Source: a virus (taxonomy: Duplodnaviria; Heunggongvirae; Uroviricota; Caudoviricetes). Taken from it: a DNA stretch of 27,633 nucleotides. The stretch lies in IMG/VR virus record IMGVR_UViG_2630968911_000005; one strand, written 5' to 3'. Below are positions 9,670 through 14,852 of this stretch, in pieces; position 1 is the stretch's first letter; each line of letters opens with the position of its first letter. The notes beneath the pieces were generated by a model that was given only the letters and a program-made list of their open reading frames with translations, was not told where the DNA came from and ran no database searches. Made by a program: the position numbers and the translations under genes.

Positions 9670-10002
9670 TTAGACGTAAATATCAATGGTGCCAGCGGTA
9701 TTTGTATCGTCTTTTTTCTCTTCTTTTTTATCAGGCTGAACTGTCGCGTCTTCATTCTTTTTCTCTGCCTGCTGCCTTAACAACTGCTCCAGTTGAGCCC
9801 AGAGGCTTTCAATTTGCTTCTGTACCAATGCAGCCATTTCTTTTTTCTGCTGTGTCGTCATCCCCTCTTCCGATGAGATTTTCCCAAGCTTTTCAGTCAG
9901 CACCTGAATTTGTCTTGTGATTTTGGCTATTTCTGATGTTCCTTCCGGGGCGGAGTTGTTTGAAATAACGGTTGAGGTATTTCCCTGAATTGTGACAGAC
10001 AT
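9670..10002 (-). CDS. flxA: FlxA-like protein (FliA-regulated prophage gene)
   Basis: 110-aa product matches E. coli K-12 FlxA as recalled. RBS AAGGAG upstream. Confidence 0.9.
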   Translation of the reverse strand: MSVTIQGNTSTVISNNSAPEGTSEIAKITRQIQVLTEKLGKISSEEGMTTQQKKEMAALVQKQIESLWAQLEQLLRQQAEKKNEDATVQPDKKEEKKDDTNTAGTIDIYV

Positions 10003-10025
10003 AGATTTCTCCTTTTAAAAAAGCA

Positions 10026-10052
10026 CTATCGGCATGCACAAAAAAATCTTTA
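10026..10052 (-). promoter_or_regulatory. Sigma-28 (FliA) class 3 flagellar-type promoter for flxA
   Basis: Minus strand reads TAAA-N15-GCCGATAG (consensus TAAA-N15-GCCGATAA), ending about 24 nt upstream of the flxA ATG. Confidence 0.6.
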
Positions 10053-10204
10053 ATCGTATTTCTTGTGTCATTAATTGTTTGATGTTCAGATTGTTTTCCT
10101 CGCGGGCTGGCGCGCCTCAGAAAGTAAAGCTTGTTGACAGGGGTAAACGTTCGGCAATAATTTTCTGCCGCATGCGGGTGTTGCATAAAACGTGTTACGT
10201 TCCT

Positions 10205-10510
10205 TTATCGACAGGTCAGGTCACCGCTCACCCGCCGACGAGAAAGCAACACTGACATGCTAAAGCAAAAAATAGATGAATAAGTTGAGTTGTGCATATG
10301 TAGCCTGACCGTCACAAAGTATATGGTGTCTGTACCAGTAAGATGATGGCCGGACTCTTTAAAAACGAGCTGACCTGCACAATACAGGATGGACTTAGCA
10401 ATGGCTGCTCCTGGCACAAAGCGGACAGTGATCACCGTTCTTACGACTACTTTCTGACTTCCTTCGTGACTTGCCCTAAGCATGTTGTAGTGCGATACTT
10501 GTAATGACAT
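10205..10510 (-). CDS. ydfV: Hypothetical protein (YdfV-like position and length, 101 aa); doubtful gene
   Basis: ORF divergent from relB, same position and length as K-12 ydfV. No clear RBS or motifs. Confidence 0.3.
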   Translation of the reverse strand: MSLQVSHYNMLRASHEGSQKVVVRTVITVRFVPGAAIAKSILYCAGQLVFKESGHHLTGTDTIYFVTVRLHMHNSTYSSIFCFSMSVLLSRRRVSGDLTCR

Positions 10511-10523
10511 TTGTAATTACAAG
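10471..10523 (+). promoter_or_regulatory. relBE promoter (TTGCCC-N17-GATACT) with overlapping operator repeats (relO)
   Basis: CTTGTAATGACATTTGTAATTACAAG at 10498-10523 has repeated TTGTAAT hexads with dyad symmetry, just upstream of relB. Confidence 0.6.
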
Positions 10524-10534
10524 AGGTGTAAGAC

Positions 10535-10774
10535 ATGGGTAGCATTAACCTGCGTATTGACGATGAACTTAAAGCGCGTTCTTACGCCGCGCTTGAAAAA
10601 ATGGGTGTAACTCCTTCTGAAGCGCTTCGTCTCATGCTCGAGTATATCGCTGACAATGAACGCTTGCCGTTCAAACAGACACTCCTGAGTGATGAAGATG
10701 CTGAACTTGTGGAGATAGTGAAAGAACGGCTTCGTAATCCTAAGCCAGTACGTGTGACGCTGGATGAACTCTGA
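10535..10774 (+). CDS. relB: RelB antitoxin
   Basis: 79-aa product matches K-12 RelB as recalled (MGSINLRIDDELKARSYA...). Stop overlaps relE start (TGATG). Confidence 0.95.
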   Translation: MGSINLRIDDELKARSYAALEKMGVTPSEALRLMLEYIADNERLPFKQTLLSDEDAELVEIVKERLRNPKPVRVTLDEL

Positions 10775-11061
10775 TGGCGTATTTTCTGGATTTTGACGAG
10801 CGGGCACTAAAGGAATGGCGAAAGCTGGGCTCGACGGTACGTGAACAGTTGAAAAAGAAGCTGGTTGAAGTACTTGAGTCACCCCGGATTGAAGCAAACA
10901 AGCTCCGTGGTATGCCTGATTGTTACAAGATTAAGCTCCGGTCTTCAGGCTATCGCCTTGTATACCAGGTTATAGACGAGAAAGTTGTCGTTTTCGTGAT
11001 TTCTGTTGGGAAAAGAGAACGCTCGGAAGTATATAGCGAGGCGGTCAAACGCATTCTCTGA
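10774..11061 (+). CDS. relE: RelE mRNA interferase toxin
   Basis: 95-aa product matches K-12 RelE as recalled (MAYFLDFDERALKEW...). Confidence 0.95.
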   Translation: MAYFLDFDERALKEWRKLGSTVREQLKKKLVEVLESPRIEANKLRGMPDCYKIKLRSSGYRLVYQVIDEKVVVFVISVGKRERSEVYSEAVKRIL

Positions 11062-11132
11062 ACCAAAGCATGACATCTCTGTTTCGCACCGAAGGTGACA
11101 CTTCTGCTTTGCGTTGACAGGAGAAGCAGGCT

Positions 11133-11288
11133 ATGAAGCAGCAAAAGGCGATGTTAATCGCCCTGATCGTCATCTGTTTAACCGTCATAGTGACGGCACT
11201 GGTAACGAGGAAAGACCTCTGCGAGGTACGAATCCGAACCGGCCAGACGGAGGTCGCTGTCTTCACAGCTTACGAACCTGAGGAGTAA
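11133..11288 (+). CDS. hokD: Hok-family small membrane toxin HokD (RelF), 51 aa
   Basis: Manual translation MKQQKAMLIALIVICLTVIVTALVTRKDLCEVRIRTGQTEVAVFTAYEPEE. Below the ORF-track size cutoff. RBS GGAGAAG upstream. Confidence 0.85.
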   Translation: MKQQKAMLIALIVICLTVIVTALVTRKDLCEVRIRTGQTEVAVFTAYEPEE

Positions 11289-11356
11289 GAGACCCGGCGG
11301 GGGAGAAATCCCTCGCCACCTCTGATGTGGCAGGCATCCTCAACGCACCCGCACTT

Positions 11357-11390
11357 AACCCGCTTCGGCGGGTTTTTGTTTTTATTTTCA
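11357..11390 (+). terminator. Rho-independent terminator after the relBE-hokD operon
   Basis: Stem CCCGC/GCGGG with TTCG loop, followed by TTTTTGTTTTTATTTT. Confidence 0.6.
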
Positions 11391-11504
11391 ACGCGTTTGA
11401 AGTTCTGGACGGTGCCGGAATAGAATCAAAAATACTTAAGTAGCGCGCAGGGATAAGAGGGATGGTCCCTTAAAGGGGAGAGCTAATTATCCGGAAGGAT
11501 TCTG

Positions 11505-11756
11505 ATGATGAACATCGAAGAACTGCGTAAAATTTTTTGTGAAGATGGCCTCTATGCTGTGTGCGTTGAAAATGGAAATCTTGTTAGTCATTACCGCATT
11601 ATGTGTTTGCGAAAGAATGGGGCTGCGTTAATTAATTTTGTGGATGCTCGGGTCACGGACGGATTTATCTTGCGCGAAGGTGAGTTTGTCACTTCATTAC
11701 AGGCATTGAAAGAGATCGGAATAAAAGCTGGCTTTTCTGCTTTTTCAGGAGAATAA
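11505..11756 (+). CDS. rem: Rem protein (function unknown)
   Basis: 83-aa product matches K-12 Rem as recalled (MMNIEELRKIFCEDGLYAVC...). Confidence 0.85.
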   Translation: MMNIEELRKIFCEDGLYAVCVENGNLVSHYRIMCLRKNGAALINFVDARVTDGFILREGEFVTSLQALKEIGIKAGFSAFSGE

Positions 11757-11822
11757 ACTCATCTACAATCTTGCGCGGGGCTGAACTCCCGCTGAGTAAC
11801 ACCGTGCCACCGGAGAAAACCG

Positions 11823-12101
11823 ATGGCACGCAACGCAAAATATTACAATTCTGATAATTCGCCCGTTCTTGCCTGCACGCACGGGCGGTATTCTCACGCA
11901 TTCAAGTCTGAATGGTTCCAGCACCCTCCATGCACTGCAGAACAGGCCGAATGGCTGATTCATTCTTACCGCAGGCGCGGGTTCGAGGTTAAGAAAGCTC
12001 TCAGTCTCGACTATCGGCACTGGATAATCTCTGTCAGGCTGCCTTATTCCGAACGCCCACCACGTGCGTCCCGCACTTTCCAGCAACGGATCTGGAGGTA
12101 A
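11823..12101 (+). CDS. Hypothetical protein (92 aa) immediately upstream of ydfU
   Basis: ORF ends 2 nt before the ydfU start. Cys/His-containing sequence. No homolog recognised. Confidence 0.4.
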   Translation: MARNAKYYNSDNSPVLACTHGRYSHAFKSEWFQHPPCTAEQAEWLIHSYRRRGFEVKKALSLDYRHWIISVRLPYSERPPRASRTFQQRIWR

Positions 12102-12102
12102 C

Positions 12103-13152
12103 GTGCGGGTATTACTTAGACCTGTTCTGGTGCCTGAGCTTGGGCTGGTGGTCCTTAAGCCGGGCCGTGAATCCATACAGATATTTCATAATCCTCGAGT
12201 GCTGGTGGAACCGGAACCAAAAAGCATGCGTAATCTGCCATCCGGAGTCGTTCCTGCCGTTCGCCAGCCGCTGGCGGAAGACAAAACATTGCTGCCGTTT
12301 TTTAGTAACGAACGGGTGATTCGTGCTGCTGGCGGCGTTGGCGCATTGTCCGACTGGCTATTACGTCATGTTACATCCTGCCAGTGGCCTAATGGCGATT
12401 ACCATCACACTGAAACAGTCATTCACCGTTATGGTACCGGCGCAATGGTGTTGTGCTGGCACTGCGACAACCAACTGCGTGACCAGACATCGGAATCACT
12501 GGAGCTGCTTGCTCAACAAAATCTGACAGCATGGGTGATTGACGTCATCCGTCACGCAATAAGCGGTACGCAGGAGCGGGAATTATCTTTGGCTGAATTA
12601 TCCTGGTGGGCGGTCTGCAATCAGGTGGTGGATGCACTACCTGAGGCTGTATCGCGTCGTTCGCTGGGATTACCAGCGGAAAAAATCTGCTCGGTGTACC
12701 GCGAAAGCGACATCGTACCGGGAGAGCAGACCGCCACCAGCATATTGAAACAACGCACAAAAAATCTTGCACCGTTGCCTTACGCCCACCAGCAACAAAA
12801 ATCACCACAGGAAAAGACGGTGGTAAGCATCACCGTTGATCCAGAGTCTCCGGAATCTTTCATGAAGCTGCCTAAACGTCGCCGCTGGGTTAAGGAGAAA
12901 TACACACGTTGGGTTAAGACACAGCCGTGTGCTTGCTGCGGTATGCCAGCCGACGATCCGCATCATCTGATTGGTCACGGGCAGGGCGGAATGGGAACAA
13001 AAGCACATGATCTCTTTGTGTTGCCTTTGTGCAGAAAGCATCACAACGAGCTGCATACGGATACAGTGGCATTTGAAGATAAGTATGGCTCCCAACTGGA
13101 GCTGATATTTCGTTTTATCGATCGCGCGCTGGCAATTGGCGTACTGGCGTAA
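12103..13152 (+). CDS. ydfU: YdfU-like protein with C-terminal HNH/zinc-binding-like motif
   Basis: GTG start at 12103 with GGAGG 5 nt upstream gives 349 aa. C-terminus has CACCGMPADDPHHLIGHGQGG ... CRKHHNELH. Confidence 0.8.
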   Translation: MRVLLRPVLVPELGLVVLKPGRESIQIFHNPRVLVEPEPKSMRNLPSGVVPAVRQPLAEDKTLLPFFSNERVIRAAGGVGALSDWLLRHVTSCQWPNGDYHHTETVIHRYGTGAMVLCWHCDNQLRDQTSESLELLAQQNLTAWVIDVIRHAISGTQERELSLAELSWWAVCNQVVDALPEAVSRRSLGLPAEKICSVYRESDIVPGEQTATSILKQRTKNLAPLPYAHQQQKSPQEKTVVSITVDPESPESFMKLPKRRRWVKEKYTRWVKTQPCACCGMPADDPHHLIGHGQGGMGTKAHDLFVLPLCRKHHNELHTDTVAFEDKYGSQLELIFRFIDRALAIGVLA

Positions 13153-13165
13153 GTGGAGAACGAGC

Positions 13166-13918
13166 ATGAACCTTGAAGCCTTACCAAAATATTACTCCCC
13201 AAAATCTCCAAAATTGAGCGATGACGCTCCAGCGACAGGCACCGGTTGTTTAACAATTACGGATGTAATGGCAGCGCAGGGGATGGTGCAGTCGAAAGCA
13301 CCACTTGGGTTGGCCTTATTTCTGGCAAAAGTTGGTGTTCAGGACCCTCAGTTTGCGATTGAAGGCCTGCTAAATTACGCGATGGCACTGGATAACCCGA
13401 CATTGAACAAATTGAGTGAAGAAATCCGGTTACAGATTATTCCTTACCTCGTGAGTTTTGCCTTTGCTGATTACTCCAGGTCTGCGGCAAGTAAGGCTCG
13501 CTGTGAGCATTGTTCAGGTACGGGATTTTATAATGTATTGCGCGAAGTGGTGAAACACTACAGACGCGGGGAATCTGTAATCAAGGAAGAATGGGTGAAG
13601 GAACTATGTCAGCATTGCCATGGTAAGGGCGAAGCCAGCACAGCGTGCAGAGGGTGTAAGGGTAAAGGGATTGTTCTGGATGAAAAAAGAACCCGGTTTC
13701 ATGGCGTACCGGTATATAAGATTTGTGGGCGTTGTAATGGAAACCGGTTTAGTCGTTTACCGACCACGCTGGCACGACGTCATGTCCAGAAGCTGGTACC
13801 AGACCTGACCGATTATCAGTGGTATAAGGGGTATGCGGACGTCATTGGTAAACTGGTAACAAAGTGCTGGCAGGAAGAAGCATACGCGGAAGCGCAATTG
13901 AGGAAGGTGACGAGATAA
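13166..13918 (+). CDS. quuQ: Late-gene antiterminator Q (lambdoid Q family)
   Basis: 250 aa from ATG 13166 (GGAG upstream). Contains zinc-finger-like CEHCSGTG / CQHCHGKG / CRGCKGKG. Followed by a promoter plus terminator unit. Confidence 0.85.
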   Translation: MNLEALPKYYSPKSPKLSDDAPATGTGCLTITDVMAAQGMVQSKAPLGLALFLAKVGVQDPQFAIEGLLNYAMALDNPTLNKLSEEIRLQIIPYLVSFAFADYSRSAASKARCEHCSGTGFYNVLREVVKHYRRGESVIKEEWVKELCQHCHGKGEASTACRGCKGKGIVLDEKRTRFHGVPVYKICGRCNGNRFSRLPTTLARRHVQKLVPDLTDYQWYKGYADVIGKLVTKCWQEEAYAEAQLRKVTR

Positions 13919-13949
13919 ATGATTTTTGCTGAAGATGGCGACATGATGT

Positions 13950-13978
13950 TTGCATTTTTCAAAAAATATGGATAAAAT
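13950..13978 (+). promoter_or_regulatory. PR'-like late promoter (TTGCAT-N17-TAAAAT) downstream of Q
   Basis: Near-consensus sigma-70 hexamers with 17-bp spacer; terminator about 50 nt downstream, as in lambda PR'/qut/tR'. Confidence 0.5.
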
Positions 13979-14023
13979 TTTTTCAACGATGGGCTTTGTA
14001 TACCCGACGTTAAGAAAAAGTAG

Positions 14024-14054
14024 AAAACCCGCTGATGAGCGGGTTTTGTGCTTT
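14024..14054 (+). terminator. Rho-independent terminator (tR'-like) ending a short leader transcript
   Basis: AAAACCCGCT-GATG-AGCGGGTTTTGTGCTTT: 6-bp GC stem followed by a T-run. Confidence 0.6.
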
Positions 14055-14339
14055 AAATGGGGCAATGGTAATGTTGAATCTCATCCCGGGACTCATGTCT
14101 GTTAACTTATTATTTAGCTGGTGACTTGGTTATTTGCCTGATGTTTAAAATGTTTTCTTCCAGTACAATGTCCCTAAACACAATGAGTCTGCTTATTATA
14201 TTATTAGCAGAGCTATTACGGCCAAAGTACAGCATAAGCTTTTAAAGCCAATCAACCAGTCATCAAGACAGACGGGGTTATTCATAAAAACTCTCCATGT
14301 GTGATCCGATGGGGCCTGAAATTAAAGCTTTAATATAGC

Positions 14340-14552
14340 TCATGAAAGGTAAACATTGGCAGCTGAAGGGCCACGCAGACCATTTATCCGGCAAAATTCC
14401 ACGCGTAATCCGGTGGTAATTTCTTCTGCATCGCGGAGATTGAGCGCTGAAACATGAAGCTGGACATCGATACGACCATCGGATGGGGTGATAAGACCCT
14501 TGCCGCTTTTGCCGTCAAAGGTTTTGACAATTCCTGTCATTTTACGGGACAA
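14340..14552 (-). CDS. cspF: Cold-shock protein family member CspF
   Basis: 70-aa cold-shock-domain protein ([26 protein letters not shown]...). Confidence 0.9.
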
Positions 14553-14852
14553 AAAAATTCCTTAATACTGATAACTTGGCGCACTATACACACGTTCCTG
14601 AAGAAAGCTATAGTTTTTTGATGGGGTTGAAGATGGCTGGATGTCTAAAATAAACATTGCTTCATATGTTCAACTATGCGTTAATGATTGCGTCGGTTTG
14701 AAGAACAGACGATATACGAAGTAGTTTACTAAAGCAGTTCTCATTTCAGGTGTTATTCACTTATTCCTTCTTTGAGTCTCTCCAATTAAGTACGAAGTCG
14801 TTTCTGTTATGCAAACCATTTATGCCGAAAGGCTCAAGTTAAGGAATGTAGA

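Follow-up and report, generated by a model that had tools for sequence, protein, structure and literature searches.

A published classification of the His-Me finger nucleases places YdfU, by name, in group 7 as its E. coli member; the group comprises DUF968 and DUF1364 (Jablonska et al. 2017, PMC5714182). That study does not discuss an N-terminal Cys/His domain in the protein or a small gene upstream. DUF968 proteins of Gram-positive bacteria have been described as an Orf(NinB)-like domain fused to an HNH domain (Curtis et al. 2014, PMC4118853). Rho keeps the whole stretch that carries ydfU silent in K-12, and a strong Rho-dependent terminator is reported upstream of the gene (PMC9160355). Our survey of the literature found no biochemical report on YdfU or on any DUF968 protein, and searches by coordinate, accession or PHROG identifier found nothing relevant.

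We analysed a 27,633-nucleotide stretch of viral DNA (the window), the source of which is the cryptic prophage Qin of E. coli K-12. Its nin-like region carries, from 5′ to 3′, relBE, hokD, rem, a 92-aa ORF, ydfU and a Q antiterminator (Table 1). We consider it likely that the ORF and ydfU form a two-gene nin-like (replication-to-Q) cassette of a Qin-type lambdoid prophage, in which a small basic PHROG 1212 protein is coupled to the HNH nuclease YdfU. The earlier note had placed the pair where lambdoid phages carry nin-region genes, and this placement was correct: intact relatives have O/P replication genes (lambda P-like) upstream and RusA and/or Q downstream. The pair moves as a single module, as indicated by shared mosaic breakpoints at 11806 and 13152 that flank both genes and by a YdfU of 348–352 aa located one base downstream of the small ORF in almost every one of 92 Escherichia-type sequences (the window plus 91 loci, picked through the small ORF). 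The first of these breakpoints, slightly upstream of the small ORF, is where the homology block common to other prophages begins. No Rfam family was found in positions 10000–14800, and a promoter and terminator scan gave counts at chance level, with the hok terminator as the only convincing one.

Table 1. Features of the rem–ydfU–Q region, in window coordinates.
Feature	Position	Strand	Remarks
rem	11505..11756	+	Upstream context gene
GGAG, likely Shine-Dalgarno sequence of the small ORF	11811..11814	+	8 nt before the ATG; read from the sequence
92-aa small ORF	11823..12101	+	ATG, 92 codons, TAA at 12099-12101; RefSeq WP_012304870.1 'hypothetical protein'; PHROG 1212
Escherichia-specific N-terminal extension, aa 1-26	11823..11900	+	Variable, predicted disordered
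Conserved 66-aa core, aa 27-92	11901..12098	+	Predicted β-α-β-β domain and basic Pro/Arg tail
Predicted mRNA hairpin	12070..12109	+	CCCGCAC-UUUCCAG would pair with CUGGAGG-(UAAC bulge)-GUGCGGG; the Shine-Dalgarno sequence and start codon of ydfU would be sequestered
Junction GGAGG-TAA-C-GTG	12094..12105	+	ydfU Shine-Dalgarno sequence in the last small-ORF codons, stop, one spacer base, ydfU start
ydfU (b1560), 349 aa, DUF968 protein	12103..13152	+	Pfam PF06147, E 1.4e-76; PHROG 96, E 2.8e-171; RefSeq annotation
YdfU N-terminal domain, aa 1-155	12103..12567	+	Conserved C93, H101, C118, C121; codons at 12379, 12403, 12454, 12463
Flexible linker, aa 228-261, and mosaic recombination breakpoint	12784..12885	+	pLDDT <50 at residues 228-241
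C-terminal His-Me (HNH) finger domain, aa 262-349	12886..13149	+	C276-x2-C279, D284-D285-P-H287-H288, K300, D303, C310-x3-H314-x3-H318
quuQ/ydfT, Q-type antiterminator	13166..13918	+	Pfam Antiterm, E 3.6e-54, and annotation; end marker of the nin-like region

The ydfU gene has the same length as b1560 in NC_000913.3 and evolves under constraint, with a dN/dS of 0.17 overall and 0.15 in the HNH domain. An earlier start at the GTG at 12064 was rejected: the codon is not conserved, and relatives read CGT CCG there. The earlier note had seen an HNH or zinc-finger nuclease motif at the C terminus, and the peptides that it quoted are all present exactly (CACCG, aa 276–280; DDPHHLIGHGQGG, aa 284–296; CRKHHNELH, aa 310–318). 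This proposal was borne out on four independent lines, among them the Pfam DUF968 match, the PHROG 96 match and the alignment of the C-domain profile; the profile searches that the note had called for thus did find an HNH relationship. The DUF968 match scores 256.8 bits against a cut-off of 27.8 and aligns residues 160–346 with positions 1–171 of the 171 in the model, PHROG 96 ('HNH endonuclease') matches the protein over its full length, and HNHc_6 falls near threshold (26.3 bits versus 26.6). A profile of the C-terminal domain reached YbcO at E 0.015, and its HH and C..H..H residues aligned to HNH residues of YbcO, McrA and IscB. Sequence searches of the PDB with full-length YdfU, its C-terminal 95 residues or a whole-protein profile returned nothing significant.

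Judged by these matches and its motifs, the C terminus of YdfU is an HNH (His-Me finger) nuclease domain of the Ref/YbcO/DUF968 type, with the β-β-α-metal fold by which the His-Me superfamily is recognized. Among 82 diverse homologues, the motif residues were kept in 72 (C276), 59 (C279), 75 (H287), 76 (H288), 76 (K300), 81 (D303), 67 (C310), 70 (H314) and 69 (H318). The candidate catalytic histidine is H288 of the DPHH motif, which the profile alignment matches to the HH of McrA and IscB and to the corresponding YbcO histidine; it would act as the general base. H314 and H318, on the helix, would bind the catalytic metal, and CxxC and CxxxH would pair as a zinc knuckle, a prediction with which the conservation of C276/C279, C310/H314 and H318 (59–72 of 82) is consistent.

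The remainder of YdfU is less familiar. Among the representatives that cover the N-terminal domain, C93 was conserved in 73 of 76, position 101 was H or C in 72 of 76, C118 was conserved in 73 of 76 and position 121 was C or H in 73 of 76. These residues form a putative, and probable, structural zinc site beside a β-β-α element that AF2 predicts at aa 105–125. The domain had no Pfam, PDB or internal-repeat match. We considered whether the Cys/His β-β-α element might be a second, degenerate HNH, but this was unsupported (hhalign probability 0.6%; no PDB match with an N-domain profile). Fusions of the N-terminal domain to tail fibre, portal and capsid proteins were discarded as leads to function, being chimeric gene calls or prophage decay. 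The middle of the protein is predicted to be helical and then to run into a flexible linker; in many prophages and phages, homology ends at 12853 or starts only from 12835.

YdfU would most likely be a DNA endonuclease that acts on phage recombination or replication intermediates, as suggested by its kinship and by its position, where Rap/NinG, YbcO and RusA have that role in other lambdoid phages. No match at E ≤ 1 was found between YdfU and the Pfam models YbcO (PF07102) and NinG (PF05766), which score E 1e-41 to 1e-82 on proteins of mEp237, phiES15 and Gifsy-2. Against RecA_dep_nuc (PF16786), YdfU scored 17.8 bits, below the cut-off of 26.9; we therefore did not file it as a member of the Ref family, to which the fold alone is close.

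The small ORF upstream of ydfU was annotated by PGAP and is absent from the annotation of NC_000913.3. Its dN/dS was 0.27 in frame, compared with 1.88 and 1.08 in the other two frames, and its variable sites fell 33/36/65 over the three codon positions. All 26 distinct alleles that we collected were open over 90–92 codons, with in-frame indels only, and Escherichia and Shigella contain 129 homologues of 90–92 aa. Because purifying selection acts in its own frame only and that frame is always open, the small ORF is a genuine, conserved phage gene. The earlier note had made its claim depend on finding the ORF in related prophages, and every Qin-type relative has it, with the junction unchanged. 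An antisense 137-aa ORF over the same DNA was rejected, as it contains 2–4 stops in relatives. YnfS and YnfU, which are named small proteins of K-12, both map elsewhere and were rejected as candidates for the small ORF.

Homology searches and gene comparisons place the small protein in PHROG 1212, a widespread, uncharacterized and very basic phage family. Residues 27–92 match positions 1–66 of the 66 in the PHROG 1212 model (E 1.7e-35), and homologues of 66–67 aa from nine other genera align end to end; 66-aa homologues with 30–50% identity occur in about ten other genera. These homologues begin at the equivalent of residue 27 (MKKSWFQH...), whereas the Escherichia ORF has lost this ancestral start and gained the 26-residue N-terminal extension, for which dN/dS is 0.53 and pLDDT is below 50 at residues 1–23. 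The core is predicted with confidence (AF2 pLDDT ~88), ends in the tail motif LPxSxxPPRxxRT[FY]QQRxW[RG] and is strongly constrained, with a dN/dS of 0.16 in codons 29–66 and 0.11 in codons 67–92. The pI is listed as 10.5 for the core and 10.2 for the small protein. A search with the predicted fold matched nothing informative; its sole significant viral match was Orf QD1 of N15 (E 1e-3, 32% identity). A PDB sequence search with the small ORF returned nothing significant, and no match to Pfam, including NinE, NinF and NinH, was found at E ≤ 1. Scanning 25 family members singly gave five isolated weak matches, none of them to a nin family, and hhalign against the NinE of DLP12 gave a probability of 0.05%. 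NCBIfam holds no model for the small ORF or for YdfU. A further protein search for relatives of the small ORF returned Citrobacter only.

The two genes meet at a tight junction. The GGAGG at 12094–12098 lies within the final two sense codons of the small ORF (TGG AGG), and a single base, C12102, separates the stop from the GTG at 12103. The abutment described in the earlier note was confirmed in this form, with the stop just before the GTG and its GGAGG; the gap given there as 2 nt is one base, depending on how it is counted. None of the 91 related loci that we collected, nor any of 7 additional loci from Escherichia/Shigella genomes, departs from this junction, and nucleotide diversity drops there from about 0.2 to 0.01. 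RNAfold predicts a hairpin over the junction, with −16 to −19 kcal/mol and z of −1.9 to −2.8 in 7 divergent alleles; since these show almost no covariation, the hairpin is predicted from its energy and invariance alone. In these predictions, the ydfU Shine-Dalgarno sequence is unpaired with a probability of 0.05 and the GTG with a probability of 0.01 (95–99% paired). One allele, L088, loses one hairpin pair, and the equivalent junctions of other genera do not all show a hairpin-like structure.

Tight abutment is the norm among nin-region genes and carries little specific information alone. The geometry here is that of a coupled pair, with the upstream stop near the downstream start and the downstream Shine-Dalgarno sequence inside the upstream ORF, and the small ORF and ydfU are probably translated in tandem and translationally coupled. 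The Shine-Dalgarno sequence is in the last two codons of the small ORF and, like the ydfU start, is predicted to pair with the codons before them; a ribosome that reaches the end of the small ORF would thus probably melt the hairpin and then reinitiate on ydfU. The suggestion that the two may be co-translated is thus plausible and is strengthened by the invariant junction and the predicted hairpin, which make coupling an expectation from the sequence.

The same features would be expected if the small ORF were a translated leader only, one that encodes a functionless peptide and whose translation exposes the ribosome-binding site of ydfU or holds off Rho. The reported Rho-dependent terminator, a region of the ORF that is C-rich over G and the fast-evolving N-terminal 26 residues would also fit such a leader. 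However, the amino acids are conserved across residues 29–92, 30–50% identity is kept across genera in which both the downstream gene and the junction differ, and the AF2 core is compact and confident. We regard a pure leader as very unlikely and favour a coupled gene with a functional product.

An HNH nuclease behind a small coupled gene also recalls some nuclease–immunity pairs, and the two genes might then be a toxin/immunity-like or anti-phage defence module, composed of an HNH toxin and an upstream inhibitor, with no function in recombination. The toxin–antitoxin loci relBE and hokD are nearby, and ydfU has been listed among the 'toxic prophage genes' silenced by Rho (PMC9160355). PADLOC models, however, gave no meaningful match for either protein, and most YdfU homologues lack such an upstream gene. 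Immunity proteins of HNH colicins are acidic and mimic DNA, whereas the small protein is strongly basic. The cassette moreover occupies a conserved recombination slot in temperate phages that are functional, HannyBb and PhiR42_1 among them, and we hold a toxin or defence module to be highly improbable.

Within the favoured nin-like cassette, we take the small protein most likely to be an independent factor of the nin region, one that accompanies junction nucleases and is not an obligatory subunit of them. The 66-aa core family is widespread in enterobacterial temperate phages and usually lies directly upstream of a junction nuclease (NinG, YbcO, RusA or DUF968). It is found 1–3 nt upstream of, or overlapping, NinG in Gifsy-2, SPN3UB and GF-2, YbcO in mEp237, phiES15 and a Klebsiella phage, and DUF968 in E. 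coli and Klebsiella; elsewhere it precedes RusA and then DUF968 (Citrobacter and others). This recurrence would fit a protein dedicated to the His-Me nucleases of the nin region as an accessory or regulatory partner, held at a fixed ratio to YdfU by coupling and possibly a subunit that targets DNA or modulates activity. The strongly conserved basic tail, which is predicted to be unstructured as is typical of an interaction motif, and a pI suited to nucleic-acid binding point the same way. Against this, 64 of 80 YdfU homologues of other species lack the small ORF, an unrelated NinE fills the slot upstream of the DLP12 YbcO, the small gene adjoins exonucleases or unknown genes in PY54 and N15-type phages, and other genes lie between it and NinG in Erwinia, Pantoea and Hafnia phages. 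The order of lambdoid nin genes can also be conserved without physical interaction. A dedicated partnership therefore seems unlikely to us.

A bolder version, to which we give somewhat less credence still, holds that the PHROG 1212 protein is an unrecognized dedicated cofactor of NinG/Rap, YbcO and DUF968/YdfU that, at a stoichiometry fixed by coupling, targets or restrains these enzymes, which would otherwise be non-specific, on recombination intermediates, and that in Qin its translation decides Rho termination before ydfU and Q. Whichever role applies, a family that recurs beside three families of junction nucleases across Enterobacterales is a cheap candidate for a new accessory factor of phage recombination.

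The locus is ordinary and largely known. The HNH assignment of YdfU was already made, and the small gain in annotation is the omitted gene: NC_000913.3, the reference of the most studied genome, treats a selected 92-codon gene between rem and ydfU as intergenic. The omission bears on how Rho-terminator and transcriptome data are interpreted in the rem–ydfU stretch. For ydfU, which belongs to the 'y-ome', a concrete and testable activity is offered by the conserved catalytic set together with the link that structure provides to Ref and YbcO. Qin is defective and ydfU may never be expressed in K-12; the stakes are modest, and the view of HNH nucleases and lambdoid phages is unchanged.

Compared with described nucleases, YdfU is the same protein as the E. 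coli member of DUF968/group 7, and its prophage setting by RusA and Q is that described in PMC5714182. The Gram-positive DUF968 proteins belong to the same Pfam family and share the C-terminal zinc-finger HNH motif; an Orf/NinB-like N-terminal domain was not found in YdfU. P1 Ref, a RecA-dependent HNH nuclease (PDB 3PLW), has a short basic N terminus where YdfU instead has ~260 extra residues. Unlike YdfU, YbcO of the DLP12 prophage (PDB 3G27; YbcO/DUF1364) is a 96-aa stand-alone domain. Rap/NinG of lambda, a structure-specific D-loop and junction endonuclease of His-Me group 24, takes the position of YdfU in the nin region and is a member of its superfamily, but the architectures of the two proteins differ; in Gifsy-2, SPN3UB and GF-2, NinG is preceded by the same small-protein family as ydfU.

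The window is the right-hand early region of Qin, a cryptic lambdoid prophage of E. coli K-12. An earlier note had described an HNH-like motif at the C terminus of YdfU and an abutting 92-aa ORF, possibly co-translated, where lambdoid phages carry nin-region genes. Our analysis confirmed this observation and supported its interpretation; the coordinates and peptide strings were exact (CACCG, residues 276–280; DDPHHLIGHGQGG, residues 284–296; CRKHHNELH, residues 310–318). A GTG at 12064, an earlier candidate ydfU start from an ORF listing, was rejected because relatives do not conserve that codon. Elsewhere, hokD is followed by a clean intrinsic-terminator hairpin (11357–11374, AACCCGC-TTCG-GCGGGTT, then a T-run), and quuQ carries a DnaJ-type CXXCXGXG zinc-finger segment (residues 148–193, Pfam E 1.3e-8) beside its Antiterm domain. 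No Rfam family, hok/sok-type RNAs included, scored above threshold in 10000–14800.

Genes and candidate sites around ydfU, in window coordinates
Feature	Position	Remark
relB-relE	10535-11061	
hokD	11133-11288	
rem	11505-11756	
92-codon ORF	11823-12101	
ydfU	12103-13152	GTG start, 349 aa
YdfU aa 93-121, four candidate zinc ligands	12379-12465	conservation
quuQ/ydfT (Q antiterminator)	13166-13918	

We found that the small ORF is a genuine gene under selection that is absent from the reference K-12 annotation: NC_000913.3 has no gene at 1644305–1644650, and PGAP annotates the ORF in a K-12 derivative (WP_012304870.1) and an O157-type strain (WP_010917803.1). Its 129 homologues in Escherichia/Shigella are 90–92 aa long, diverge to 63% identity and contain only in-frame indels. 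Among seven divergent alleles, dN/dS was 0.27 in its own frame versus 1.88 and 1.08 in the alternative frames, and fell from 0.53 (codons 1–28) to 0.16 (29–66) and 0.11 (67–92); variable sites at codon positions 1, 2 and 3 numbered 33, 36 and 65. An antisense 137-aa ORF over the same stretch was dismissed as a gene, being interrupted in relatives. Phage records ON470583.1, ON470612.1 and ON470619.1 label the region 'toxin to Rem' or 'mobile element protein', labels for which this analysis found no support.

Residues 27–92 of the small protein match the entire PHROG 1212 model (E 1.7e-35), placing it in a widespread 66-aa phage family found alongside junction nucleases. Family members are 66–67 aa long in Citrobacter, Enterobacter, Klebsiella, Pluralibacter, Buttiauxella, Atlantibacter and Scandinavium, and in phages of Salmonella, Cronobacter, Hafnia, Edwardsiella, Yersinia, Erwinia and Pantoea. 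In these hosts and phages the proteins begin MKKSWFQH, their first residue corresponding to E. coli residue 27; this indicates that the Escherichia form exchanged the ancestral start for a 26-residue extension, which evolves fast and has a disorder prediction. AlphaFold2 (AF2) modelled a confident beta-alpha-beta-beta core (residues 29–74, pLDDT about 88), followed by a tail, LPYSERPPRASRTFQQRIWR, of low confidence and high conservation. With a pI of 10.2, the small protein is very basic.

At the junction the sequence is TGG AGG TAA C GTG: GGAGG falls within the last two sense codons of the small ORF, whose stop is followed, after a single base, by the ydfU start. Across 91 loci collected via the small ORF, the 21-nt junction ATCTGGAGGTAACGTGCGG was invariant, and the only variation near it was a synonymous third base in an Arg codon. 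Pairwise nucleotide diversity dropped from roughly 0.2 through 0.08 to 0.01 between a point 40 nt before the small ORF's end and one 20 nt into ydfU. RNAfold predicted that 12070–12083 pairs with the Shine-Dalgarno (SD) sequence (12092–12098) and GTGCGGG (12103–12109); for the seven alleles, energies ran from -16 to -19 kcal/mol (z -1.9 to -2.8 against dinucleotide shuffles), and predicted pairing, in a 130-nt context, was 95% for the SD and 99% for the GTG. Variable bases lie in the loop or retain pairing as G-U, and one allele loses a pair; true covariation is absent, so we treat the hairpin as a prediction only. Junction, predicted hairpin and diversity drop fit termination–reinitiation coupling, in which ribosomes finishing the small ORF would open the hairpin and then reinitiate on ydfU. 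A plausible SD-sequestering hairpin is one gain of this analysis, alongside the proof of selection on a gene missing from the reference annotation, its family membership and a probable second YdfU zinc site. Equivalent junctions in other genera were structured in some cases only. One contig encodes an in-frame small ORF–YdfU fusion (P0122, ...RTFQQR|MRVLLRP...) that removes the IWR-stop-spacer junction.

Chhakchhuak and Sen 2022 (PMC9160355) class the terminator 5' of ydfU as one of the strongest that depend on Rho in E. coli ('very strong'). In that study's table, mutation of nusG or rho, or bicyclomycin, raised ydfU (2.36, 1.95, 1.4, 2.77, 1.76) but not rem (0.54, 0.41, 0.08, -0.52, 0.04), so Rho acts between the two, where the unannotated ORF lies. 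The terminator must fall in 11757–12103 (NC_000913.3 1644305–1644650), 'intergenic' in the reference annotation. This stretch is richer in C than G, with GC skew down to -0.29, and rem is G-rich. Terminators are classical features of lambdoid nin regions, with which one upstream of ydfU is consistent. Rho termination here implies that the small ORF–ydfU cassette is silent in uninduced K-12.

The HNH-like nuclease motif was borne out by several searches. Residues 160–346 of YdfU are DUF968 (Pfam, E 1.4e-76), with a near-threshold HNHc_6 and a weak RecA_dep_nuc match; PHROG 96, annotated 'HNH endonuclease', covers the protein end to end. A profile from its C-terminal 88 residues matched YbcO (E 0.015), and in its alignments to McrA and IscB DPHH and C-x3-H-x3-H fall on their canonical HNH positions. 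Over 82 representatives of at most 50% mutual identity, the zinc/helix residues C276 (72), C279 (59), C310 (67), H314 (70) and H318 (69) and the motif residues H287 (75), H288 (76), K300 (76) and D303 (81) were retained, and a dN/dS of 0.15 shows purifying selection on the domain. The HNH interpretation is correct yet not new, because the YdfU accession had been listed under His-Me finger group 7 with DUF968 and DUF1364/YbcO (Jablonska et al. 2017, PMC5714182) and the DUF968 zinc-finger HNH motif had been noted (Curtis et al. 2014, PMC4118853); the assignment already stands in Pfam and PHROG. A literature search for biochemistry on any DUF968 protein found no study. Variant zinc/HH groups occur in the homologue alignment A2 (P0284, P0302, P0323, P0343, P0365, P0354, P0370; P0331, P0386, P0319): some lack the second and third zinc cysteines (PCVVTG..., PL[HRA]) and retain HH, and a smaller group lacks HH too and is therefore probably catalytically dead.

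Full-length YdfU architecture persists to ~28% identity (2885 representatives at E<=1e-3), and the AF2 model reached pLDDT 85 (36 homologues, identity down to 26%). Residues 1–155 had no match in Pfam, PDB or internal-repeat searches; an Orf/NinB-like N-domain, described in Gram-positive DUF968 proteins, is not detectable in YdfU. In 76 diverse homologues, C93 (73), position 101 (H 47, C 25), C118 (73) and position 121 (C 37, H 36) resemble zinc ligands around a beta-beta-alpha element (residues 105–125, AF2), a pattern suggesting a probable structural zinc site. Residues 228–241 are predicted to be disordered. Mosaic breakpoints recur in thousands of E. coli prophages at 11806, just 5' of the small ORF ribosome-binding site, at 12835–12853, in the YdfU linker ahead of the HNH domain, and at 13152, the ydfU stop. 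Many phages, including mEp460, SfV and Stx2c-type partners, share DNA solely from 12835 onward and others solely up to 12853; the HNH domain and Q are therefore swapped as one block. Fusions of the N-domain to tail-tip, tail-fibre, portal or capsid domains (P0265, P0309, P0310, P0376, P0245, P0293) and of YdfU to Q (P0123-P0126, 607 aa) are most likely decaying-prophage deletions or gene-calling/assembly artefacts. Enterobacterial prophage contigs with ydfU homologues binned as Veillonella parvula, Vagococcus sp. and Actinomycetes bacterium (L093, L127, L134) probably reflect contamination or mis-binning.

Several observations favour a functional small ORF–YdfU unit. In every Escherichia-type locus selected by the small ORF, YdfU follows one base 3'; 55 of 57 distinct downstream genes encode 348–352 aa, the other two being truncated, and mosaic homology blocks start at 11806 and finish at the ydfU stop. 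In phages, the 66-aa gene directly precedes junction nucleases of differing families, confirmed with Pfam: NinG, itself a His-Me finger (Gifsy-2, SPN3UB, GF-2), YbcO (mEp237, phiES15, a Klebsiella phage), RusA then DUF968 (Citrobacter and others) and DUF968 (E. coli, Klebsiella). Other observations speak against such a unit. In other species, 64 of 80 homologues of YdfU lack the small gene and have antirepressor-like proteins, RusA or a methyltransferase 5' instead, as identified by eye and from the mEp460 annotation. The 66-aa gene of PY54, N15-type, Erwinia, Pantoea and Hafnia phages has a different gene directly next to it. In our reading, the small protein belongs to the recombination cluster of the nin region and is linked to junction nucleases, though not obligatory for them; a dedicated nuclease cofactor is possible at low probability. 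A further point against a functional pair comes from DLP12, where the same slot before YbcO is occupied by NinE, which is unrelated to the small protein.
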